Assembly: GCA_965371515.1 (NCBI GenBank) | Contig: CBDUYR010000005.1 | Coordinates: 9,312-73,311 of the forward strand | Length of the DNA stretch: 64,000 nt | From: an uncultured bacterium | GTDB lineage: Bacteria > Krumholzibacteriota > Krumholzibacteriia > Krumholzibacteriales > Krumholzibacteriaceae | Direction: 5' to 3' | Shown here: in pieces, positions 6,469 through 49,808 of the stretch | Layout: each line of letters opens with the position of its first letter | Numbering within the stretch: position 1 is the first letter of the stretch | The notes under the pieces: generated by a model | What the model saw: the letters and a program-made list of their open reading frames with translations, nothing else | What the model was told of the DNA's origin: nothing | Databases searched by the model: none | Position numbers and translations under genes: made by a program

Positions 6469-7389
6469 GAAGAAATGCTCGGTTCGCAGGAACCTCAGAG
6501 TACCGCTCTTGCTGCGCAAAACGAGGCTGTGAGTCACGGCGCCCCCCGGTCGGAAGTTCACACCCTCGAGGAAAGCACTCCTCGATACCCCGGTCACGGC
6601 GAACATGATGTTGTTTCCGCCGGTGAGGTCCTCGATGCCGAATACCCTTTCATAGTCACTGTCCTCGTCGGACTGTCCCGACTCCTCCCTGACCAGCTGT
6701 CCCTGAAAACCCCCACCGAGACAGGCCAGCGCCGCCGCCGTTATGATCCCCTGCCGGGTGTCGCCCGTCCCGAGCGCCACGTCGATCCCCGTATCGGGCA
6801 GCACGGCCGCGAACGCGGCGGCGAGGTCGCCGTCGCGGACGAGTTCGATCCTTGCCCCGGCGCGCCTGACCTCGTCGATGAGGTTGGCGTGCCTCTCCCT
6901 GTCGAGGATGGCCACGGTCAGGTCCTCGACGTAGACGCGTTTCGCCTCGGCGATCCTGACCAGCTGGTCGAAGATCGAGCTGTCCAGATCTATACAGTCG
7001 GCCGCATCGCTGCCGACTACGATCTTTCTCATGTATCTCGCATTGAAATGCCTGAACGATCCCCTCGGGCCGATGGCTATGGCGGAGATGGCGTTCCCCT
7101 GCCCGTCGGCCAGCGAGCCCATCCCCTCGAGCGGATCGAGGGCTATATCGACCTCGGGATCCTCGCCCGAGCCGACCACGTCGCCACGGCGCAGGACGGC
7201 ATCGGGGATCTCGTCCCTTTCTCCGATGATAACGTTTCCGGTGATCTTGATGCCCTTGATCACGATGGCCATAGCCGCCGCGGCCGCCCCGTCGGCGGTT
7301 ATGGGATCGCCCTTCCCCAGCAGCCGGGCGGAAGCCAGCGCCGCCGCCTCGGTCGCTCGGACCAGTTCAAGGGCCAGATTGCGATCCAA
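6445..7389 (-). CDS. glpX: Fructose-1,6-bisphosphatase class II
   Basis: N-terminus MDRNLALELVRATEAAALASARLLGKGDPITADGAAAAAM and overall colinearity with GlpX family; 314 aa. Confidence 0.85.
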   Translation of the reverse strand: MDRNLALELVRATEAAALASARLLGKGDPITADGAAAAAMAIVIKGIKITGNVIIGERDEIPDAVLRRGDVVGSGEDPEVDIALDPLEGMGSLADGQGNAISAIAIGPRGSFRHFNARYMRKIVVGSDAADCIDLDSSIFDQLVRIAEAKRVYVEDLTVAILDRERHANLIDEVRRAGARIELVRDGDLAAAFAAVLPDTGIDVALGTGDTRQGIITAAALACLGGGFQGQLVREESGQSDEDSDYERVFGIEDLTGGNNIMFAVTGVSRSAFLEGVNFRPGGAVTHSLVLRSKSGTLRFLRTEHFFDKEPDYT

Positions 7390-7403
7390 ATCTCATTCCC
7401 TCC

Positions 7404-7835
7404 TTATTCCTCCCTGATCGCCGGCATGCCGTCTTCATCGACATCATCCTGCCGCTCTTCTCTGACGGCAACGACCATCTCGTTCAGTTCCTTCGCCATC
7501 TGGTACTGATGGATAGCGAAGATCACGGGAAGAAGGATGTACGCCACCCCCGCGGTAAGCGGGACGGCGAAGATCTGGATCACGAAGGTAAGCCAGAACC
7601 AATTCCATTGACCGAGGTAAATGTAGCCTACCGGCCCGAGCAGTATCCAGCCGAGGAAGAAACCGAGCGACGCCGCGACCCCTGGATTCCTGGTATCCTC
7701 GGGGACGCTGAGACGGGTCAGTTCGTACGCGTACAGCTTTCCACCGCCGGGAGGCGCCTTTTCGAGAGGCCTGCCGCAGTTTTCGCAGTACTCGCTTCCT
7801 TCTTTGACTTCACTACCACATTGCTGGCAGTACAT
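7404..7835 (-). CDS. Zinc-ribbon domain membrane protein (hypothetical)
   Basis: MYCQQCGSEVKEGSEYCENCGRP zinc ribbon followed by 3 predicted TM helices; ATG at 7835 has SD ggaggt 7 nt upstream. Confidence 0.5.
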   Translation of the reverse strand: MYCQQCGSEVKEGSEYCENCGRPLEKAPPGGGKLYAYELTRLSVPEDTRNPGVAASLGFFLGWILLGPVGYIYLGQWNWFWLTFVIQIFAVPLTAGVAYILLPVIFAIHQYQMAKELNEMVVAVREERQDDVDEDGMPAIREE

Positions 7836-8159
7836 GATGTTTACCTCCGCTTTTGGAATCCTCACTTCCTGTTACGTCAGCCGGAGGAGGATTGTTTCTC
7901 TTTCGTCTAACCATTTTATAGAACAGGGGCATAGAATAACAACGGTTTTTTTACTGTTTTACCGGCGTAAAGGCCTATGAAACAGATTCATGGACCGGAA
8001 TCGGCGGCGTCTGAACCAGATTGACGCCGAATGAAGAATGAGGACTTCTTCTCATAACAATATCGCGCCGGGATTACACCGGAATTCCATATATGATCTA
8101 TCTGCTGAAGGTGACTGCATATTGTGGGTAGAGGCGTGAGCAGATCTGCGTGAGAGGAT

Positions 8160-9365
8160 TCACCGGCCGCTTTCGCTGCGTGCCTTTCTGAGGCTCTCGA
8201 GATTGACGATGGCGGTCACATTCTCGGGGTCGAGCTCGAGCGTCCTCACGAGAAGCCTCTCGGCTTCGTCCAGTTCGCCGATGGACGCAAGCATCACCGC
8301 GAGGTTGATCAGCCCCGTCGGCCAGTCATGCCTCTGGTCAACGACTCCCCGCTGGATCTCGATCGCCTCCTCGGTACGCGAGAGCCTGTGAAGACACATC
8401 GCCACTCTGTCGAGGTTCCCGGGAGTCTCAGGGAGGGTCCGGAACAGGACGAGGGCCTCCCCGTATTCGCCTTCGCGGAAGAACAGCCGGGCGAGACGCT
8501 TCGCCGCCTTCTCGTCGTACTGCTCGTCGAGCATCTCCCGCAGGACCGTCTCCGCTTCCTCCGTCCGCCCCGACCTCGCCAGGGCCTCGGCATAGTTGAA
8601 CCTGATCTCGCGGTCGGCCGGATCGGCCGCCAGGGCTTCTTCGAGTGGTTTGACCGCACGGGAGGGCTGGCTGCTCCTCAGCATCAGGAGCCCGAGCTGG
8701 TAGAGAAAATCGGGAGTCATACCGCCCGCGCGTTCCGATTTGACGAAGAGCGTCTCCGCGAGAATGGGATTCGCCTCGGCGACAAGCATCCCCTTGAGAC
8801 CTAGCAGGTACGAATCGCCGGGCGCGTAGTCGAGCCCCTCGTCCACAATGGCGAGCGCCGCTTTCTCCTCCCCCCTCCTGATCCGGACGACGGCGAGGTT
8901 TCTGTTTATCACCGGGGTGTTCTCAGGCCCGCAGAACATCTTCGCCTCGTTGAGCTCGGTAAGCGCACGTCCCGTCTTGTCCGTCTCGAGAAGCAGCACG
9001 GCGAAATTCAGGTGCGTCTCGCACACCGCGTAGTCGGCGAGCAGCGATTCCTCGAAGAGAACCACCGCCTCGTCCACACTGCCCGTCCTCCAGAGGGCTT
9101 CGGCTTTCTGTCCCTTGAGCCTCGGGTCGGTGCCTCCCGCGGCCTCGAGACTATCGGCTATCCTTATCACCTCATTGTATCCGCCGCGTTCCAGAAGGGT
9201 CAGTATCTGCGTGTCGATGTCACGCCTCGGCTCATCCCAACCTTCCTCCATCGCATCCCTCACGCTGCCCCCGCCGCTCCCGGCGCACGCGCCGAATATC
9301 ACCGGCGTGAGTATGGCAGTCGCGAGGAAGATCATCCGGAACGTTCTTGCAGCATGCATATCCAT
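8160..9365 (-). CDS. TPR-repeat lipoprotein
   Basis: Signal/lipobox ...LTPVIFGACAG followed by multiple TPR-like helical repeats. ORF extends to 9431; start chosen at MDMHAARTF, which is uncertain. Confidence 0.55.
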   Translation of the reverse strand: MDMHAARTFRMIFLATAILTPVIFGACAGSGGGSVRDAMEEGWDEPRRDIDTQILTLLERGGYNEVIRIADSLEAAGGTDPRLKGQKAEALWRTGSVDEAVVLFEESLLADYAVCETHLNFAVLLLETDKTGRALTELNEAKMFCGPENTPVINRNLAVVRIRRGEEKAALAIVDEGLDYAPGDSYLLGLKGMLVAEANPILAETLFVKSERAGGMTPDFLYQLGLLMLRSSQPSRAVKPLEEALAADPADREIRFNYAEALARSGRTEEAETVLREMLDEQYDEKAAKRLARLFFREGEYGEALVLFRTLPETPGNLDRVAMCLHRLSRTEEAIEIQRGVVDQRHDWPTGLINLAVMLASIGELDEAERLLVRTLELDPENVTAIVNLESLRKARSESGR

Positions 9366-9447
9366 ACGGGGAAATGATAAGGTCGCACGGCCGACGAGTG
9401 CCAGATATTTCTGGGATATTATGTCATTCACTGAAGGACGAACGGGG

Positions 9448-9993
9448 TTACGTGGATTTCTTGAGACCCTTGGTGCGTTGCTCCATGAGCTTGTGCCGCA
9501 GCCTGCCTAAGTACCTGTTCAACGGGTGGTCGCGGTCGATGAATGGGATCACCGGCTTCTTGCGAACCCCCATGCGGGAGAGCTCGAGCGCCGCGGGGGC
9601 GTTCGTGTTGTCCAGCCTGTAAGCCTTCATGAGGTTCTCTCTCGCCTGCATGCGGTCGCCTCTCTCGAGCAGCACGCGGCCCAGGTTGACGTACAGCATC
9701 GGGTCGCGTTCATGCCCTGCGAGCTTCAGGGCCATCCTGCACATCCTCTCGCCCTTGGCCTCGTCGCCCATCATCGACTCGCATAACCCCATCGTAGAGA
9801 GATATACGGGATTCTCGGGAGATATCTTCAACGCCTGCTCGAGGAGTTTCATGGCCTCGCCGTAGTTATTTTTTTTAATATTGGCTTCCGCCTTGACGTA
9901 GAATTCCCTCGATTCGAAGGTATCTCTCGGCTCAAGCATCAGTTTGTCTGTCAATTCGTGTCCTCCGGTTGCAAAATCCAACCGGGCCGGCAA
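9448..9993 (-). CDS. TPR-repeat protein
   Basis: TPR-like repeats (YGEAMKLLEQALKISPENPVYLSTMG...); 181 aa. Confidence 0.5.
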   Translation of the reverse strand: MPARLDFATGGHELTDKLMLEPRDTFESREFYVKAEANIKKNNYGEAMKLLEQALKISPENPVYLSTMGLCESMMGDEAKGERMCRMALKLAGHERDPMLYVNLGRVLLERGDRMQARENLMKAYRLDNTNAPAALELSRMGVRKKPVIPFIDRDHPLNRYLGRLRHKLMEQRTKGLKKST

Positions 9994-40679: not shown

Positions 40680-43052
40680 TCAGCGGATAATAACAATCTT
40701 CTGAACCTGTTCCTTCGGGCCGGCCTTGACCTTCATGAAGTAGACGCCCGTCACGACCTGCTTGCCGCGGTCGTCAAGACCGTCCCAGGTAAGCGTGATG
40801 ATCTGCCCGCCGAAGACACCCAGCTCGTACAGATGCCTCACATGCCGGCCCGCCACGTCGTAGATGTTGACGAGGATCTCGGTCTTCGTTTCGGCCGTCG
40901 GAGCTCGAAGCATATCTCTCGAGTCTCCGGTTCCCGAAGGATCGAAATAACTTCTCGGCACGTCTATGCTGAAGGTACTCCCCCTGTCGTCGGTGGGATT
41001 GGGGATGATCGAAGAGACGAAGTTTCCCGCGAGCGGTACGATCGCCGTCTCGGCCATCTCTTTCGACTCGTAGTGCAGCGTCGTCGGTTCGCTGTTGATA
41101 ACGACGTTGATCTCCCCGACGACCTGGTAACTGTACTTGTGCCCGGGCATGACTGTGTCGTCAATGTAACGGTAGCGCCTGTATTCGTCGTTATAGCTGT
41201 ATGTGCTGTCGCCATGGACAGTTCCAACCAGTTCCCTCGACGACCTGTCGGTCAGGTCCAGCCGGTACACATCGAATCCTGCACCGAATATCTCACTGGC
41301 CGTCTTCCATCTGACCTCGATACTGCCGGGCTCCGCTATCGCCATTGCTTCGTAATATCGAATGCCGACGAAATAGACCATGACGCTTGTGGTGTCGCTC
41401 AATTCCACGAGGTTCTCGGCAGCGAAGCGGATCCGGTTCTCGCCCGGGTCAAGTCCTTCCTGAAGGATGATGCCCGCACTGAAGCTCGAAGCTCCTGTAA
41501 ATCTGCCTGGAGCCTCCTTGAAGAATCCGTCGTTTATCGCTATCTGGAAGCTCACGATCTCGGGCGCGTAATCGATTCGCCGGTATTCCTCTATTCTCGT
41601 GTTCTGGTTCGGCACTGGTGTCTGTTCGACGTCGACCCAGATGAGTATGTCCCCGTAGAATGTCGTGTCGGATTTGGGAGTGTATGCCTCGATAACGGGC
41701 ATCACTTCGTAGAGATCCGGAATCGAATTCGGAACACTCTCGCCCGTGAAAATATTGTATTCGTCGGCCAGCCCGACCTGACCCATCGTCCACGGACAGA
41801 TCGGCAGCGGCTCATTTAACAGCGCATCGTTCATGATGCAGGGCCACCCCGCGCCGCAGTACCTATGGTACGAATTAGCATTGATGTAGTTGAGGTATCC
41901 GGATCTGGCGATACACGAAATCTCGGCGCTGGCGGCTTCGTCGAGCGCCCAGAAGACATGGCTCATCTCGCGGATGAACACGTGCGCGAAATTGAGGCCG
42001 CCCCCTAACCCGCACGCGGGATAAGGAACAACCATGTACGGTCCCCCGAGAAAGATCGTATACCCGACGTATTCGCCGCCAAACCCCCGCCAGCATTCGT
42101 TCACGCTCGCATCGGCTACAAAGGCGGTGAATACCCAGTCGTAGAGGAGAAGGCCGTCATCGCCGAGATCTCTTGCTCTCATCGCATTATTGAAATAATG
42201 TGTCATTTCGGATGCCGGAGCGTCACTCGGGATCTCTATATCGTAGCTCTCCGCCAGGTAGGTGATCGCCTCCGAGATCCAGATCGGATCAGTGTTCCAG
42301 TCGCCCTCGATAGGCTCCCGCGATACCGGCACACGGCGATGCAGAGAGGGACAATTCACTTCGAACGCCAGCGGCACCCAACGGGCTTCGTTCTGGTACT
42401 GGGAAAGTCCGAGATAGACGTCGCGTACTGCATTGCCGATCTCGTCATCCGTCCAGTTCTCGCTCTGCACGCCGCCCGAGCTCTCTGGAAAGATGAGATT
42501 GATGAGGACATTGCCGATGAGAAACTCTGAGTTCTGATCCATCGCCCTGTCAGCTATCTGAGCGGGTGCTCCTTCTCTCGGGTCAACAGATTTCGATACG
42601 GTCCTCTCGACGATATCGTGCGGCTTCTCTAAAACGAGGTCGACAAACGATTCCTTCGTGATCGGCCTCGCCATACTGAGGATCTTCTCCTGATCGAGCA
42701 GTCCCCTCGCCACCTTGAGAGTGACAAGGTCGACCTCCATCGGATCGATCTCCGTCGGGTCGGTGACAAACCGGATGTCGAGTTCCCCGAAGTCGGCTTC
42801 GCCGGCGCCTGCGGGGAACCTTCCGAATATCATCGTCGGGGGCAGACCGAGCAGGCCCTTCGCTCCCGCCTTCTCGGCGATCTCCATCGCCCTCCTGAAC
42901 GAACCGTTGTCGCCGTTCCTTATGAGTACGACGGCCTGCCTGAGGCCGTATTCGGTCTCGAAGTTGTCCGCAGATGACCTTGCCGGGAATATGATTAAAA
43001 CGGTGAGAAAACAGATGACGGTTATTGCGATCCTCTTCACTTTCCACCTCAC
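40680..43052 (-). CDS. Large secreted protein with Por/T9SS C-terminal sorting domain (function unknown, possibly a hydrolase)
   Basis: Signal peptide MRWKVKRIAITVICFLTVLIIFPARSSA; C-terminus EILVNIYDVAGRHV...TLTWDGLDDRGKQVVTGVYFMKVKAG...KIVIIR matches the T9SS CTD pattern; Cys-rich central region. Confidence 0.55.
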   Translation of the reverse strand: MRWKVKRIAITVICFLTVLIIFPARSSADNFETEYGLRQAVVLIRNGDNGSFRRAMEIAEKAGAKGLLGLPPTMIFGRFPAGAGEADFGELDIRFVTDPTEIDPMEVDLVTLKVARGLLDQEKILSMARPITKESFVDLVLEKPHDIVERTVSKSVDPREGAPAQIADRAMDQNSEFLIGNVLINLIFPESSGGVQSENWTDDEIGNAVRDVYLGLSQYQNEARWVPLAFEVNCPSLHRRVPVSREPIEGDWNTDPIWISEAITYLAESYDIEIPSDAPASEMTHYFNNAMRARDLGDDGLLLYDWVFTAFVADASVNECWRGFGGEYVGYTIFLGGPYMVVPYPACGLGGGLNFAHVFIREMSHVFWALDEAASAEISCIARSGYLNYINANSYHRYCGAGWPCIMNDALLNEPLPICPWTMGQVGLADEYNIFTGESVPNSIPDLYEVMPVIEAYTPKSDTTFYGDILIWVDVEQTPVPNQNTRIEEYRRIDYAPEIVSFQIAINDGFFKEAPGRFTGASSFSAGIILQEGLDPGENRIRFAAENLVELSDTTSVMVYFVGIRYYEAMAIAEPGSIEVRWKTASEIFGAGFDVYRLDLTDRSSRELVGTVHGDSTYSYNDEYRRYRYIDDTVMPGHKYSYQVVGEINVVINSEPTTLHYESKEMAETAIVPLAGNFVSSIIPNPTDDRGSTFSIDVPRSYFDPSGTGDSRDMLRAPTAETKTEILVNIYDVAGRHVRHLYELGVFGGQIITLTWDGLDDRGKQVVTGVYFMKVKAGPKEQVQKIVIIR

Positions 43053-43163: not shown

Positions 43164-43928
43164 TCAGTTTTCCGCTTCTCTTCCGGGTGTAGAATAATCT
43201 ATGAGAACCGATTCGGTCACAGTCACCTTGGGCCTGGTCTCGCGCGGGTTCCTGCCTCCCGGATAACTCGTCTTAGATGTCCGTTCCACGCGGCTTCTTA
43301 CGAGGCCCCAGAAAGGCACCTCGGAGGAGATCCTCAGGATGCTCCTCTCCTCCTCAAACCGCTCCGCCGTGATCCCTCCCATCGCCACGTCGCGCCTGTC
43401 GCTCCTGAAATACTCGAAGACATCGCACCGGAAAGTCCCGGCCGGCACCTCCACGCTCTCCGCTTCGTGCTCCTGCCTCTGCAGCCCCTCGCTTCTCTTG
43501 AGGAAAAGCCTGCCGATTTCGAAATCCTCGAGTTCCTCTAAGGACGGCTCCCTGAAAGGCTCGGTGCCGTCCCTGACCAGGATATCGCCGATGCAGGCGT
43601 AGAACTCCTCGGGGGTCTTCATCTCTTCCGCTCCGGCGCACAGGGTGAGACGAACTGTAATCGTCTCCGCGGCGATCGGAGGCCAGGTGGTAGAGGTTAT
43701 CTCGAGGCCGGCCCCGCCGGAGCCCTTTCCCGTCACTTCGAGCGTGACGAGCGAGCTGTCCCTGATGCCGTGGGCTTCCGATATGATAAGATACGATACC
43801 GATGTCCCCGCAGTGAAATCGACCGAGTGAAGCGAGACTCCAGGTACGAGAAAGTCGACTTCCGCCGTGGCGGGAGACGATGCGACGATCAATGTTCCCA
43901 GCGCGAGACAGGCCGATATACGGTTCAT
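43164..43928 (-). CDS. Secreted hypothetical protein
   Basis: Internal start MNRISACLALGTLIVASSPATA (signal peptide); no family recognized. Confidence 0.4.
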   Translation of the reverse strand: MNRISACLALGTLIVASSPATAEVDFLVPGVSLHSVDFTAGTSVSYLIISEAHGIRDSSLVTLEVTGKGSGGAGLEITSTTWPPIAAETITVRLTLCAGAEEMKTPEEFYACIGDILVRDGTEPFREPSLEELEDFEIGRLFLKRSEGLQRQEHEAESVEVPAGTFRCDVFEYFRSDRRDVAMGGITAERFEEERSILRISSEVPFWGLVRSRVERTSKTSYPGGRNPRETRPKVTVTESVLIDYSTPGREAEN

Positions 43929-43944
43929 GGGATCATCCCCCTCT

Positions 43945-45334
43945 TTATCTGTGAGCCTCGGCAGCGCCGGTGCTGTCGGCCAGCGCCCTGTGCCCCACTC
44001 TCGCCCAGAAGGTCTGAAAATCGAAATGCGGGCTCTGCCTGGCGTTGTGGCATTCCCGGCAGACCTTCCTGGCTCTCTCCCTGTATTTACCGTTGCGCGT
44101 GTGTTTTGTTCCCGGTCCGTGACAGGCCTCGCACTGGACTCCCCTGAGGTTGATGCCGCCCTTCTCATCCGATTCCGGGTCGTATCCGCTGAACCTGCCG
44201 TATCCCGTCGTATGGCACGGAAGGCATCTGGCATTCCTGTCGTTCCCAGATTCTGTGAGCCTCCTGAAGGCGCGGAAGTGGGGACTGACCATGAAATCCG
44301 AGGCGGTGCCGTCGTGGCAGCGTGCGCAGATCTCCATCCCGATATACTTCTCTCTCAGTTTGCCCGTAAGGGGATTGCGAGAGACAAACTGCGTGACCTG
44401 CATCCTCTTCCGCCTCTGTCCCTGCTCGAGATGAAAATCACTGAGCATCGAGGCGACCATCGTATCTATCGGGGCCGACTTGGGAAGAGTTACCAGCATC
44501 GTGTCGGTCAGCTCCCACCTGCCTTGCACCGGTGTCATCACCGCCCACCCGAGAGCGCGTCCCTTGTCTCCCGAATAGAGGACGGGGACTCCAAGGTCAT
44601 GGAACGATCCACCGGTCGTGTCGGCGCAGTCGCTCGAAGCCTTCTCGCCCCGCTCGGTATGCCCGCGGATCACGAGATCTATCCCCTCTATTTCGAGGAG
44701 CAGCGGTTCGAGCATCTCGCGCCTGAAGTGGGCGAGGAGAATAATCATTTCACACCCATCCTCGCGTAACTCTGCGGCCACTTCCCTGCCCTCGGCAATC
44801 GGATCTCTCAGATCGATACCGGTCTCACCTGCCGGCTCTTCGCCGAGCAACGCAAAGATCCCTATCTTCGTGCCTCCCACTTTCTTGATGATGTAAGGTG
44901 GGAATATTCTCTCGTCCTCGTAGTAAAGATTTGCGCAGATCACGGGAAGGCCCGTCTGCGCCTCCTCCCTTATCGCCTTGAGCTCATACGACAGCTCGTT
45001 CTCACCGACGGCCACGGCGTCATACCCGGCCAGCACCATCATGTTCGCGAGGAACCGGCTCCTGTACATCTCCAGGATGCCCTTCCGGGCATAGAAATCG
45101 CCGGCGGAGAGGAGCAGCAGGCCGGGGGACTCCGCTCTCATCCGCTTGAACTCTGCGGCCCGCCGGGCCACACCGCCTGAGGCGGCCTCGCCTCACCCGG
45201 CCGGGACGAGGTGCCCCTGAGTGTCGCCGGTGAATACTATAGTCACCGATTCTTCAGTGGAGCATCCCGCCGCGAGGGCGAAGAAGAGAAGAGCCGGCAG
45301 AGCCAGCTTCAATATCAAGGATATCAGCATCATG
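43945..45334 (-). CDS. Lipoprotein: 5'-nucleotidase-like metallophosphoesterase domain (degenerate motifs) fused to C-terminal tetraheme cytochrome c; in-frame TGA at 45193..45195 (candidate selenocysteine)
   Basis: ATG 45334: MMLISLILKLALPALLFFALAAGCS-TEESVTIVFTGDTQGHLVPAG-[TGA]-GEAASGGVARRAAEFKRM..LLLLSAGDFY..GYDAVAVGENELS (compare UshA LHTNDHHGHF...LLLSGGD...AIGNHEFD). C-terminus has CARCH, CLPCH, CEACH, CRECH. Confidence 0.55.
45157..45192 (-). promoter_or_regulatory. GC-rich hairpins immediately 3' of the in-frame UGA (SECIS candidates)
   Basis: mRNA after UGA: ggcgag-gccgcc-uca-ggcggu and guggcccggcgggccgca (ggccc-ggc-gggcc). Confidence 0.3.
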
Positions 45335-45410
45335 TTTATGATTTTAACGTGTAGAGAAAAAGGGGCAAAGCGAAAATATTCTCCTTGCCCCTGTATAATG
45401 CAAACCCCTG

Positions 45411-45704
45411 TTACTTGGCTACACGGCCCTTGAGAGACTTGCCAGCCGAAAAGGCGGGGAACTTGGTCGCCGGAATCATGATGGTCTCGCCCGTCTGGGG
45501 ATTGCGGCCCTTGCGTTTCTTGCGCTTGCGGGTCTGGAAGGTGCCGAATCCAGTGATCTGTACTCTTCGCATAGCCGCGAGCTCTGTCGCGATTATGCCT
45601 TCCTTCGGAGCGGTGCTGAAGATCGCGTCGACAACCATGGCCGAATCCTTCTTCGTCATGCCCGTCTTCTTTGCGACCTTCTCGATGAGATCAGTCTTGT
45701 TCAT
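45411..45704 (-). CDS. HU/IHF-family DNA-binding protein
   Basis: [21 protein letters not shown]...GFGTF...RNPQTGE..IPA...F..GK.LK: canonical HU fold sequence; 97 aa. Confidence 0.85.
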
Positions 45705-45878: not shown

Positions 45879-48800
45879 TCAGTTGAGGAATCCCGGCACC
45901 GTCCCGCCAAGCCCCCGCTTTCCCTGCTCGTACTTGAGGTCGCGGTGGGCCTTGATCTGTATCTGGAAGTAGTATGAGTAATCGTCGCCGAACCTGCGGT
46001 GCACGAATCCCGCCTGCCAGCAGTGGAGGTCTCTTGTGATGCTGTACTGTTGCGACGTAAACTCGCGCCGCTGGATATCGAAATAAGAACTGAATGTTAT
46101 CTTCCAGTTATTCGTCAGGTTGAGGTTGCCCCTCATGTCGACCTTGCTCGTCGGGCGGGACATGCTCGAACCGCCAAAACCCGAATAGCTGTACCCGAGA
46201 TTCAATGACCAGCTCGTACCTCGTCCCGGAGCGCCGGGCCGCCTCGAGCTGCCGGGCTGTTCGGTCTCCCATTCTTCCTCATCGAAGTCGGAGACGAAAC
46301 CGTCGTACGTGTCGAGCTCGTCGACCTCCTCGTCCTCCGGCTCCTCCTCCCGTACAGAGCCGAGCTCTTTCGCCACTCTGATCTTCTCTCGCTCAGGCAA
46401 GTCCCACTTTCCCAGCCAGGAGAATCCGCCGCCGAAGCTCATGTTAGTCGAGAAATTCGTCGAGAGGATCTCCCATTCGTAAGGATCGATCGTGTGATTC
46501 AGCGATATCGAGGCAAGCCTGCCGACCGAGGTCCTGATACTCGACCGGATGTTCGAGAACTGCCTTTCGGACACGTCGGGGTTGAAGGAACCGTTCATGT
46601 TCCACGTGAAGGCGTTGTTCTTTTTCGACTCCTGGCCGTTCTTGAGGTATTTCAGGTCGATCACGTTCCTCAGCGACCAGCTGTACCCCTGCGACTCCCG
46701 CTGATTCGACGTCAGCGCCGGGACGTACGACCAGGAGATCGACGGGTTGAACGTGTGACGGATCCCGACGAGAGAGCCTATGTTCGGATAGAAGACGCCA
46801 TACAGCGTGGTTCCGACGCCGAGGGAGAAGCGCATCGACACCTCGTTCTTGTACTTTTCGTCCGGTGTCGGGCCCGACAAGTCCGTGCCGTATACAGGCA
46901 TCCCCGGCGTGATCCCGATAGCCGGATAGATTCCATTCACGATATCGATGAACTCCAGCGAGGATTCCGAACCCTCCAGGTTGGAGGTGAACCTGAAATT
47001 TCCCGTGTCGTCCCCGTTGTCGAGCCAGTCGACGGTCACATGGTCCGATCCCCAGCCGGACCAGGAGTTGATCGAACTCTCGATCTCGAAAGCGAGCAAG
47101 GTACCGGTATTGTATACGCCCTCGGTTATCGTGATGTCGCCGCTCTCCAGGCCGTTGAGGATGATCCTCAGGAGGCTGTTCGAGGGATCGACCGTTATCG
47201 GCACCGAAACGGTGTCACCCGTCATGACGGCCGGCCGGGGCGGCAGAATGTACTTGGGATTTATCTGGTCCTTCAGTGTGTTGGCGTATCTCCAGTTCAG
47301 TCCCACCGACGGCGCGATGTTGATGCCTATTACTTTATTCTGTTTGCTGAACGACATACCCGAACTCGCTGTTATATCTTCCCTTCTTCTCGCGTCACTC
47401 TGCGACGTAGTCCGTGTCGCTTTGAGATTGGGCGCCCAGGTGACTTCGCGGAGGACCCCCTCCCATACGCCCTTTTCCGAGCCCGAGTGCTTCTCGCCGA
47501 ACCACAGCGACATCCTCGGCAGATTGATTGACAGGGATGGAAAAGTGCCCGAGATGCTCACCTCGTTCGGGTTATCGGAGCTGACGTTGAGTTTCTGGTT
47601 CCTGCTCGCCGAGAGACCGAGCCGCGTGCCGCCCCAGTTCTTGTTGAAACTGACGGTCGAGTATATCCGTCTGTCCACCACGCGGGCGACATCATCGGCG
47701 CGGTAGACCGAAGAGGGCGCCTCGTCACTGCTTACAAAGCTGAGGTTGCTGCGAAGCGATGCGGTTTTGCCGAACGTCTGGTTGTGACTCGACTTGAACG
47801 TCCACTCGTACGATTTCCTGTTGAAGTCCCTGAAGAAGTCGAGGTTAACGTTTCCGCCGAGCACGTATCTGACCTTGTACCTGTTGGTCAGGTGTACGCG
47901 GAAGTTATTGTTCTCGTTAAAATCGGTCGTCAGTATGAAATCGGTATAGTCGTTCGTCGCCCAGTAGTACCCGATCCCCCTGATGAAACGGCCGTCTCGG
48001 CTGTTGAGGCCGATGTCGAAGTTAGGGCGGAGCAATCCCGATTGGCGGCCGCGGCGTATTGAGTTGACCATGTATGGAAGCCAGAAGCAGGGGATCTCGC
48101 CGAGGTAGAGAGTTATCGGGCCGGATACGATCTTGTCGTCGATATAAACCTTCATCCTGCCGGCACGCATCGAGTAGTGTGCTTTCCTGTAGTCGCATGT
48201 GGTGTAGGTCGACCCGTAGACCTTTAGCACGTCGTCGCCCTGCTTGAAGATCCTCTTGCCGAGATAATACCCCTGATCGTACTCGGTCGATCCGTCCATC
48301 ACAAGGCCCCCCTCGGTCTCCATATCGTACCCCATCCCGTATCCGTACATCATCTGCCCGTTCTCGTCGAGCGCCGGCTCGCCGTGAGCGTCGAGGATGT
48401 TGAGCCTCGAGCTGAAGTTTATGAATTCGGCGGTAAGGATCTTGTTCTGATAGTTCACTTTCGCGCCGTCGTACATGACGAAGTCCTCGGTCGTGGCAAA
48501 GTACTCGATCTCGTTCGCCTCATAAGTGATCTTCTCGGCGTCCCTGCCGAACTCCCTGAATACGATCGAACTGTCGACTATCGCGGCGAGCGAGTCGATC
48601 GACTCTCCCGCGCCGAGTGTGAGATAGTTGTACGTACCCGAGGCGTTGCCGGTAATCTTCACGTATCTCAGGTCCGGCCCGTCGAACCTGAAGAACATCG
48701 TGTCGCCCCTCGAGTAGTTGTTCGAGATCTTGTTTTCGGTCCCCTCGAAGGGATAGTACATCGCCATCGCATTGCCGAAGATCTGAACCGAGTCCACTTC

Positions 48801-49808
48801 ATCGTTCGACATGTGTATCACGATCGAGTCGCCCTCGATCCACGAGTCCTCGATCCACTGGGATTCGAGTCTGGGAGTTTCGGTCAGACGGCCCTTCTCG
48901 GGGAGCACGATCCTTTCCACGCCCTCATCGATGTAGTAGAGAAGCACCCTCTCCCCGGACATGCCTGACGGGCCGCTGCTCGCGATCGGGTTGCCGAAGA
49001 GCTCCATGTACCCCTTGTCGTTGAAAATCGCCGCCGAATCACATTGCGCCCTCGTGCGCCCCTTGAGCATGTTGACGTTTCCTACTGCCGTACCGACGTC
49101 CTTCTCCATGTCGTAGCTCATCCACTCGCTCGTCACCCGCCCCTCCTCCTCGGCATGATCGTCGAAGACGAGGACCGGGCGTTCGTACATGATCGCCTCG
49201 CCGGTGAGACGGTGAAACCGCCCGCGCGAACCAGAGATGGAAAAATCCTCCGCTGTGTCTATTATGACTACATCCCTCCACGCGTCTGCGATCTCGGTCG
49301 ACCTGTCGTAGAAAATCGAGTCTGCGTACATTACCCTTGTACTGTCTGAAAGGCGGACGTTGCCGGTCAGGACAAGCGTCCCTTCATCCCTGTCGTACTC
49401 GGCTCTCCGGCAGGTGACTTCGAGCCCCTCGTCGATCAGCCTCACGTTATCTATCATTACAAGGACGTTCTTCTCGCCGTAATACTCGCCGAGGTCACTG
49501 AACATCCGCATCGATCCGTCGATTCCACGGACGTCCCCCACGAGTATCGTGCGCTTGAGATCGGGATAGTGACGCCCCCGCTCGCTTGTCACGGTGGCGG
49601 TCTGGTGGTCGATTCGTACATCGCCCTCCATGTGCCAGACCTGGAGCCCGTCCTCGACCCTCGACTTGAACGTGTTGAACCTGATCCGGTAGAGAGACGT
49701 GTCGCCCGGCGATGCGGTGTTCTGCTGTGAACGGGCCGTGGGCGGCGCACCTCCGACCGCGAAGAGTATCGCGGCGATCGTCGACGTTATTGCGAGGACC
49801 CTTTTCAA
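45879..49808 (-). CDS. lptD: LptD/OstA-family LPS-assembly outer-membrane protein, unusually large (1309 aa)
   Basis: Signal MKRVLAITSTIAAILFAVGG; N-terminal OstA/LptA-like beta-jellyroll (LQVWHMEGDVRIDHQTATVTSERG); long C-terminal beta-barrel region with Y/F-rich strands. Confidence 0.55.
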   Translation of the reverse strand: MKRVLAITSTIAAILFAVGGAPPTARSQQNTASPGDTSLYRIRFNTFKSRVEDGLQVWHMEGDVRIDHQTATVTSERGRHYPDLKRTILVGDVRGIDGSMRMFSDLGEYYGEKNVLVMIDNVRLIDEGLEVTCRRAEYDRDEGTLVLTGNVRLSDSTRVMYADSIFYDRSTEIADAWRDVVIIDTAEDFSISGSRGRFHRLTGEAIMYERPVLVFDDHAEEEGRVTSEWMSYDMEKDVGTAVGNVNMLKGRTRAQCDSAAIFNDKGYMELFGNPIASSGPSGMSGERVLLYYIDEGVERIVLPEKGRLTETPRLESQWIEDSWIEGDSIVIHMSNDEVDSVQIFGNAMAMYYPFEGTENKISNNYSRGDTMFFRFDGPDLRYVKITGNASGTYNYLTLGAGESIDSLAAIVDSSIVFREFGRDAEKITYEANEIEYFATTEDFVMYDGAKVNYQNKILTAEFINFSSRLNILDAHGEPALDENGQMMYGYGMGYDMETEGGLVMDGSTEYDQGYYLGKRIFKQGDDVLKVYGSTYTTCDYRKAHYSMRAGRMKVYIDDKIVSGPITLYLGEIPCFWLPYMVNSIRRGRQSGLLRPNFDIGLNSRDGRFIRGIGYYWATNDYTDFILTTDFNENNNFRVHLTNRYKVRYVLGGNVNLDFFRDFNRKSYEWTFKSSHNQTFGKTASLRSNLSFVSSDEAPSSVYRADDVARVVDRRIYSTVSFNKNWGGTRLGLSASRNQKLNVSSDNPNEVSISGTFPSLSINLPRMSLWFGEKHSGSEKGVWEGVLREVTWAPNLKATRTTSQSDARRREDITASSGMSFSKQNKVIGINIAPSVGLNWRYANTLKDQINPKYILPPRPAVMTGDTVSVPITVDPSNSLLRIILNGLESGDITITEGVYNTGTLLAFEIESSINSWSGWGSDHVTVDWLDNGDDTGNFRFTSNLEGSESSLEFIDIVNGIYPAIGITPGMPVYGTDLSGPTPDEKYKNEVSMRFSLGVGTTLYGVFYPNIGSLVGIRHTFNPSISWSYVPALTSNQRESQGYSWSLRNVIDLKYLKNGQESKKNNAFTWNMNGSFNPDVSERQFSNIRSSIRTSVGRLASISLNHTIDPYEWEILSTNFSTNMSFGGGFSWLGKWDLPEREKIRVAKELGSVREEEPEDEEVDELDTYDGFVSDFDEEEWETEQPGSSRRPGAPGRGTSWSLNLGYSYSGFGGSSMSRPTSKVDMRGNLNLTNNWKITFSSYFDIQRREFTSQQYSITRDLHCWQAGFVHRRFGDDYSYYFQIQIKAHRDLKYEQGKRGLGGTVPGFLN

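Follow-up and report, generated by a model that had tools for sequence, protein, structure and literature searches.

What might be expected of a protein that joins a nucleotidase-like domain to a multiheme cytochrome, and whose reading frame carries a stop codon near its beginning? This question is raised by a gene on the minus strand of a 64,000-nucleotide stretch of DNA (hereafter the window), which corresponds to positions 9,312 to 73,311 of contig CBDUYR010000005.1 (GenBank assembly GCA_965371515.1) from an uncultured bacterium of the family Krumholzibacteriaceae, phylum Krumholzibacteriota. The gene (43945..45333) comprises 462 codons including UGA-47, and this TGA (45195-45193) is the sole interruption of the frame. 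We find that the gene is a divergent Krumholzibacteriota variant of a catalogued and widespread selenoprotein family, and that its architecture is not new. With moderate confidence, we read its product as a lipid-anchored periplasmic heme-selenium redox enzyme, in which selenocysteine 47 (Sec47) and a partner cysteine would act at the second of four hemes (heme 2).

The in-frame UGA and its downstream hairpin

Translation of the complete frame, from tandem ATG-ATG starts at 45333/45330 to a TAA stop codon at 43945-43947, gives MMLISLILKLALPALLFFALAAG-C24, followed by VTIVFTGDTQGHLVPAG-U-GEAASGGVARRA, where U is residue 47 in the motif P-A-G-U-G-E. An earlier note on this DNA had placed the upper end of the gene at 45334, which is one base out of frame. 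The program-made list of open reading frames has only the 408-amino-acid part downstream of the TGA, and the gene calls of all 120 listed database homologues also begin past the UGA; these proteins are 296-417 amino acids long (mostly ~400) and cover 63-88% of the query. The best database matches to the product are proteins from Krumholzibacteriota metagenome-assembled genomes (MAGs). At three loci (L005, L008 and L089) the N-terminal piece has been called as a gene of its own, encoding 45-63 amino acids. Judging from the comparisons that follow, gene calls that start after the UGA are best regarded as a systematic annotation error, and public protein sets of this clade thus lack the signal peptide, the first beta-strand and the Sec residue.

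Relatives at 46-95% identity retain the TGA codon between stretches of conserved protein sequence, as seen in L001 and L004-L012. Among 77 readable species loci, 60 have TGA at the position of codon 47, 16 have a Cys codon and one has neither. Grouped by motif, the same loci comprise 56 CxU, 4 xGU and 16 CxC forms together with the one that is neither, where the CxC count includes 15 loci found by script and one (L067, VCGC) added by eye. The UGA is conserved across phyla, and a Cys codon is its replacement in these 16 of the 77 loci.

Approximately 20 nucleotides downstream of the UGA there is a hairpin (45172-45154, minus strand) that resembles a selenocysteine insertion sequence (SECIS), with an 8-bp stem (UGUGGCCC / GGGCCGCA) and a GGC triloop that begins 31 nucleotides past the U of the UGA. 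A perfect hairpin of at least 7 bp is found at this position in 49 of 65 Sec forms compared to 2 of 15 Cys forms (Fisher p = 1.4e-5). Furthermore, an analysis of covariation in 57 Sec-form sequences reveals that 82.5% of the cells are paired, versus 35-47% when the partner strand is slid, and that 62 cells carry double changes where shuffled alignments give 23.9, with none of 500 shuffles reaching the observed value. The hairpin overlaps the conserved GGVARRA codons, and coding accounts for some of its sequence conservation, but the compensatory changes and the contrast between Sec and Cys forms are not explained by coding constraint. Only the position-specific hairpin separates Sec from Cys forms, as the folding energy of the whole segment downstream of the codon gives no such separation (p = 0.16-0.44). 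When folded alone, the window segment has a z-score of only -1.7, and no Rfam match was found in the window at gathering thresholds. Two Cys forms, L062 and L078, retain a hairpin of 8-9 bp at the SECIS position, and these may be recent Sec-to-Cys conversions.

Because the UGA is either kept or replaced by Cys, and because a covarying hairpin lies downstream that is mostly missing in Cys forms, we conclude that UGA-47 is decoded as selenocysteine, with the hairpin aiding the process. The possibility of Sec at the in-frame TGA had been raised in the earlier note, and it is borne out by the conservation, the Cys replacement and the covarying hairpin. The two features by which bacterial selenoproteins are recognized, an in-frame UGA aligned with Cys in homologues and a stem-loop downstream, are both present.

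With the frame read through, the product begins with a signal peptide that ends in a lipobox-like motif, L-A-A-G-C24 (45262..45333, with the Cys24 codon at 45262-45264, minus strand; read from the sequence). This motif matches a permissive lipobox pattern, and by eye its Cys recurs in most, although not all, clade relatives: an equivalent residue (...GC) is present in L001, L006-L007 and L009-L012, ambiguous in L005 and missing in L008. Thus the lipobox-like motif suggests that the product is a periplasmic, lipid-anchored protein and a putative lipoprotein.

A nucleotidase-like domain joined to a tetraheme module

The residues flanking Sec47 belong to a 5'-nucleotidase-type calcineurin-like domain (approximately amino acids 29-290; 44464..45249, minus strand), which was recognized by Pfam, phmmer and Foldseek. 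Metallophos (PF00149) matches residues 31-226 with 35.3 bits (cut-off 21.5), and phmmer against PDB sequences retrieves 5'-nucleotidases with E = 1e-14. Structures were modeled for the 408-amino-acid part past the UGA (AlphaFold2) and for a full-length Cys-form relative. The former model (predicted local distance difference test, pLDDT, 87.6) matches Escherichia coli UshA and human CD73 in Foldseek over the N-domain and a linker helix, with E of about 3e-16. This helix (approximately amino acids 291-315; 44389..44463, minus strand; residues 237-261 of the 408-residue model) would sit where 5'-nucleotidases have their inter-domain helix. For the full-length relative, a predicted template modeling score (pTM) of 0.89 suggests a fixed arrangement of the domains. 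In contrast to the fold, the second half of a 5'-nucleotidase is missing, as the C-terminal substrate domain, 5_nucleotid_C (PF02872), gives no Pfam match in the product at E <= 1.

Alignment to solved 5'-nucleotidases reveals that the catalytic motifs have decayed unevenly. Motif I (DxH) is D37-T-Q39, with the Asp kept and the His lost; motif II (GD) is kept as G78-D79; motif III (GNHE) is G110-E-N-E, where the ligand Asn has become E111 and the catalytic His has become N112; and the motif IV His is kept as H202. Motif V (GGH) is R223-G-H225 (G-H225-T-E) and also keeps its His, because 'DLVIRGHTE' aligns with 'DVVVGGHTN' of the snake-venom and Thermus 5'-nucleotidases in the HMMER alignments. 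The earlier note had called the domain a degenerate phosphoesterase, and its reading of motif III as GENE agrees with this alignment. However, it took SGDKG for the GGH motif, whereas SGDKG (residues 254-258) is a later segment. Its statement that both metal ligands and the catalytic His are lost therefore holds in part: the catalytic His, the motif I His and the motif III Asn are gone, but D37, D79, H202 and H225 are kept. The complete set of motifs (DxH, GD, GNHE, H and GHxH) is not intact, although the fold and the PF00149 match are present.

Compared with E. coli UshA, CD73 and SoxB, the window protein has Gln for the motif I His and Glu-Asn for the motif III Asn-His, a heme domain in place of the nucleotide-binding C-domain and, in addition, a Sec. 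The ancestral residue is still found at four of seven ancestral metal-ligand positions in the clade, where H202 is conserved in 118 of 118 homologues, H225 in 117 of 118, and D79 in 99 of 101 residues (17 other sequences are gapped at this position). In the wider family none of the metal-ligand positions is conserved (D79 in 61, E111 in 55, H202 in 61 and H225 in 63 of 114 representatives), and dimetal chemistry must thus be dispensable for the family. We conclude that the N-domain has the fold of a 5'-nucleotidase N-domain without the catalytic His, without two or three of the metal ligands and without the nucleotide-binding C-domain.

The C-terminal module (approximately amino acids 330-450; 43984..44346, minus strand) resembles cytochrome c554 both in Pfam and in phmmer searches of PDB. 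Cytochrome_C554 matches residues 336-406 with 46.4 bits (cut-off 20.8), and the C-terminal part retrieves OcwA (6i5b) and cytochrome c554 from PDB, with the second and third CxxCH motifs aligned to CVGCH and CESCH of the latter. The four CxxCH motifs that the earlier note had listed are confirmed as C336ARCH (44314-44328), C370LPCH (44212-44226), C401EACH (44119-44133) and C425RECH (44047-44061), all on the minus strand. The scan with hidden Markov models that was proposed as a check on the fusion recovered Metallophos and Cytochrome_C554 in the same open reading frame, and the heme motifs do not fall into a separate one. With four CxxCH motifs, the c554 fold and the distal-His pattern all found, the C-domain is identified from its sequence as a cytochrome c554-type module with four predicted c-type heme attachment sites.

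The invariant residues of this module in the family are the four CxxCH motifs, H352 and H411, with H448 near-invariant. H352, H411 and H448 are the conserved distal His residues, and no conserved Met, Lys or Tyr was found in the family alignments that could be an alternative distal ligand. Since there are four hemes and only three conserved distal His, one heme is left without a conserved distal ligand. By homology with c554, the open heme is probably heme 2 (C370-x-x-C373-H374). The order of the CxxCH motifs and the distal-His pattern are those of Nitrosomonas europaea cytochrome c554 and of hemes 1-4 of OcwA (6I5B), and the pattern shared with c554 includes W-x-x-T-x-H after heme 1, H after CHGPG and a C-terminal H. 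In c554, OcwA and MccA, the heme corresponding to heme 2 is an open, active-site heme. Unlike free cytochrome c554, which has 211 amino acids, the window protein carries the module as a fused domain of ~120 residues, and its heme 2 may be five-coordinate or ligated by Cys or Sec.

The earlier note had presented this combination as an unusual architecture. It is instead the catalogued architecture of NCBIfam NF041198 ('UshA_like_PCGU, UshA-like (seleno)protein'), which the product matches with E = 5.2e-62 and 210.1 bits. This match includes profile positions 358-519, through the heme motifs, and the fusion is thus the family's own architecture; at E = 5e-62 to a model that spans both modules, the observation of a fusion is far beyond chance. 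The score is below the family cut-off of 275 bits, and relatives at ~30% identity likewise score 177-372 bits, on either side of it. In common with NF041198 are the full-length plan of two modules (a UshA-like N-domain and, after a linker, a C-terminal region with four CxxCH motifs) and the placement of Sec at the same site before GG(V/L)ARRA, with a SECIS-like hairpin. The window protein differs from the family in its score, in its lipobox-like motif, in an extra insertion with an invariant Cys236, and in the change of the namesake Cys to Ala, such that the P-C-G-U/C motif appears as P-A-G-U, with the Sec present and the Cys missing.

A genome scan identified relatives in at least 536 species, in phyla that include Krumholzibacteriota, Eisenbacteria, Latescibacterota, Myxococcota, Acidobacteriota, Planctomycetota (including the isolate Kolteria novifilia), Nitrospirota, Desulfobacterota and others. 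In two Planctomycetota-type MAG loci (L072 and L074) a second family member of ~500-520 amino acids lies in tandem, directly downstream on the same strand. Selenoproteome surveys have listed 'UshA-like, COG0737, CxU' since 2008 as a predicted family only (PMC2398784, PMC9312934, PMC13188914). Our search of the literature found UshA-like selenoproteins in tables of predicted selenoproteins and no experimental or functional study of them; hence a family that has long been catalogued and that is common in uncultured anaerobes has no assigned function that we could find.

The change from Cys to Ala next to the Sec is not peculiar to the window. The residue at position -2 from Sec is A, V, F or Y in the clade, where the family's first Cys is gone, and the Cys is likewise missing at that position in L001, L004-L012 and L089. 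By comparison, both Cys are present in 38 of 38 and 39 of 39 full-length Cys forms, Cys45 being retained by all 38 such representatives from the wider family, and in alignment A1 position C47 is invariant and C45 nearly so. The clade has in turn a specific insertion, SSDCAD, located after motif V, that carries Cys236 (44626..44628, minus strand). This Cys is present in 118 of 118 clade homologues, and its column is gapped in all 114 wider-family representatives. The border between the two states is visible in a relative at 43% identity (P0121/L089), which has Y-G-U with the insertion Cys, and in another at 37% identity (P0123/L090), which has C-G-U without the insertion. It appears from these alignments that the loss of Cys45 goes together with the gain of Cys236. 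C133 is also invariant in the clade.

Possible functions

The earlier note had guessed at a redox role rather than nucleotide hydrolysis. This is indeed the more plausible assignment, because 5_nucleotid_C is missing and because the ligand positions vary across the family. The residues with useful chemistry that are invariant family-wide are the four CxxCH motifs, H352 and H411, the near-invariant H448, Sec/Cys47 and Cys45. In the heme-selenium enzyme that we favor, three bis-His hemes would wire electrons to or from heme 2, and the selenolate of Sec47, as the sole invariant reactive residue of the N-domain, would be placed at or beside this heme as a nucleophile or ligand, with the partner Cys helping. 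Sec47 is predicted to be in the loop right after motif I, nine residues past its Asp, leading into the first helix, and from the fold it should lie on the face of the N-domain that once bore the metal site. The partner would be Cys45 (P-C-G-U) in most of the family, and Cys236 probably takes over in the Krumholzibacteriota clade. We can only guess at the substrates, but these would most likely be S-S or Se-S compounds such as polysulfide, selenite, or disulfides and persulfides of proteins or small molecules.

Some indication of this type of chemistry comes from gene fusions in other phyla that join family members to DsbA, GILT or glutaredoxin-like domains (P0134, P0206, P0175, P0166, L077 at 6911-9394 and L083 at 7557-9593), and from one locus (L068) in which a thioredoxin-like (Thioredoxin_7) gene lies adjacent downstream. 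Together with a single-Cys protein of 254 amino acids encoded next to the window gene (see below), these sequence associations point to thiol, disulfide or persulfide chemistry.

The nearest mechanistic precedent, chosen by analogy and with no homology implied, would be MccSep (ExtKL, GSU2937-2936) of Geobacter sulfurreducens, which was reported in 2026 to be a periplasmic pentaheme selenoenzyme that serves as the polysulfide reductase of sulfur respiration (PMC13510729). Heme 2 of MccSep is ligated by His and Cys, and a Sec from a non-heme domain lies 3.6 A from that Cys; this Sec attacks the substrate and is essential for both polysulfide and selenite reduction (PMC13510729). Like MccSep, the window protein is a predicted periplasmic multiheme c-type selenoprotein with the Sec on a non-heme domain and, probably, a partner Cys and a heme 2 that has no distal His. 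MccSep has five hemes, an Ig-like C-domain, a Sec near the C-terminus in a D-G-U-P loop and a tetrameric structure (PMC13510729), whereas the window protein has four CxxCH motifs and a Sec at residue 47 of a phosphoesterase-like domain. Membership in MccSep/ExtKL was rejected, as there is no NF040886 match at E <= 1 and there are four rather than five CxxCH motifs.

More tentatively, it is possible that the whole UshA-like selenoprotein family is a second, independently evolved class of heme-selenium enzyme, in which a dead metallophosphatase would position Sec and Cys at heme 2, the open heme of a c554-type module. Ligation of the His/Cys or His/Sec type and S-S or Se-S chemistry would then be convergent with MccSep, TsdA and SoxAX. 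If this is true, the Krumholzibacteriota clade provides a case in which the partner Cys has migrated in the sequence (from Cys45 to Cys236) while the Sec has stayed fixed. The invariant Sec, the partner Cys that can move and the one heme for which no distal ligand is conserved add up to a concrete model, amenable to testing, of a second class of such enzymes.

Several observations weigh against a heme-selenium enzyme. The openness of heme 2 rests on homology and on a missing conserved ligand, and the site could be occupied by a residue that is not conserved or by a ligand that a partner protein supplies. The exchange of Cys45 for Cys236 is effectively one evolutionary event. One family member (L077) has neither Cys nor Sec (…EAGKPGS…) and keeps its hemes and the remainder of the protein. 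The conservation of D37, D79, E111, H202 and H225 in the clade leaves room for a residual metal site. Finally, the gene is flanked by lptD, hup and a gene for a protein sorted by the type IX secretion system (T9SS) rather than by genes of sulfur or selenium metabolism, and the 64-kb window, to which this search was confined, contains no tRNA and hence no tRNA-Sec.

The alternative that survives best is that the protein is a periplasmic thiol-disulfide (selenosulfide) oxidoreductase, in which the C-x-U/C pair (here Sec47 and Cys236) undergoes redox cycling by exchange with DsbA-like partners or substrate proteins. There would be no heme catalysis, and the hemes would serve only as an electron conduit to or from the respiratory chain. 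We hold this to be possible but doubtful. In its favor are the recurrence of DsbA, GILT or glutaredoxin-like fusions in six or more independent relatives and the adjoining Thioredoxin_7 gene in L068, the invariance of the vicinal C-G-C/U motif in full-length forms, the single conserved Cys in the probably co-transcribed 254-amino-acid secreted protein, and the adjacency of the gene to lptD in synteny. In Erv2-type oxidases CxC disulfides serve a shuttle function, and E. coli LptD requires disulfide rearrangement. Nevertheless, the vicinal pair is broken in the window clade, the DsbA-fused L077 has lost both its Cys and its Sec, and no thioredoxin-fold gene adjoins the window gene. This alternative also leaves unexplained why one heme is missing a conserved distal ligand. 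The oxidoreductase and heme-selenium models are not mutually exclusive.

A metal site is an unlikely alternative. Sec47 and the partner Cys would in this case bind a metal, either near heme 2 or at what is left of the dimetal site (D79, E111, H202 and H225), for the reduction of an oxyanion. The former arrangement would be comparable to that of the sulfite reductase MccA, which has a heme-copper site where Cu(I) is held by Cys residues. Consistent with a metal are the invariance of D79, E111, H202, H225, C133 and C236 in the clade and the use of heme 2 as the active site in the c554/MccA-type heme scaffold. However, the putative ligands are not conserved in the wider family, whereas Sec/Cys is, and the sequence allows no inference of a metal.

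It is highly improbable that the protein has remained a phosphoesterase or nucleotidase or serves as an inert carrier of electrons, or that the UGA is a stop that yields a 46-residue lipopeptide and a 408-residue protein or marks a pseudogene: the Metallophos score is above threshold and all listed database gene calls begin past the UGA, but both live nucleotidase and pseudogene readings were rejected because neither the catalytic His nor the substrate-binding domain is present and because a UGA that is conserved across phyla, replaced only by Cys, and accompanied by a covarying hairpin has conserved coding on both sides, and a 408-residue product would have no signal peptide despite the need for heme attachment in the periplasm.

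Genomic neighborhood

The gene is part of a shared order that includes a Mur-ligase-family gene, a ROK-family gene, lptD, hup, the selenoprotein gene and a gene for a protein of ~255 amino acids. In the window, lptD (45879-49808, minus strand; 1309 amino acids) and hup (45411-45704, minus strand) lie upstream, and lptD is found upstream at 31 species loci from Krumholzibacteriota, Eisenbacteria and related MAGs (from loci L001-L056). Gene-neighborhood conservation had been proposed as a check on the locus, and the lptD-hup-selenoprotein order is indeed kept at these 31 loci. The synteny, including the ~255-amino-acid gene, is common to the C-G-U-type NF041198 copies of other Krumholzibacteriota and related phyla. 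Since A-G-U and C-G-U forms occupy the same genomic slot, the A-G-U form is a positional orthologue rather than a paralogue. The order of lptD, hup and the selenoprotein gene looks like phylum-wide synteny and not like a functional operon, and these housekeeping and envelope genes say little about function. Outside the Krumholzibacteriota-like phyla, no conserved neighbor gene was found except for scattered thioredoxin-fold genes.

Between hup and the selenoprotein gene, the sequence contains a terminator-like hairpin (GGGGCAA...TTGCCCC followed by a T-run; 45357-45391, minus strand). A consensus scan also gave a tentative sigma-70-like promoter, TTGCCC-16-TAAAAT (45368-45341, minus strand), that overlaps this hairpin. 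The promoter-like element ends 7 nucleotides before the ATG, with no Shine-Dalgarno sequence visible, and if it is real the mRNA would be nearly leaderless.

The downstream gene (43164..43928, minus strand) encodes a secreted protein of 254 amino acids, begins 16 nucleotides past the selenoprotein stop codon and is probably co-transcribed with the selenoprotein gene. A gene for a protein of ~255 amino acids adjoins the selenoprotein gene at 19 loci, of both xGU and CGU types. The 254-amino-acid protein has no Pfam or NCBIfam match; it carries one conserved Cys, in PAG-x-F-x-C, and a conserved VPFWGL motif. Further downstream is a gene for a secreted protein of 790 amino acids (40680-43052, minus strand), in which the only recognized domain is a C-terminal T9SS type A sorting domain (TIGR04183, 24.1 bits). 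This T9SS-sorted protein is kept two genes downstream of the selenoprotein gene at 9 loci.

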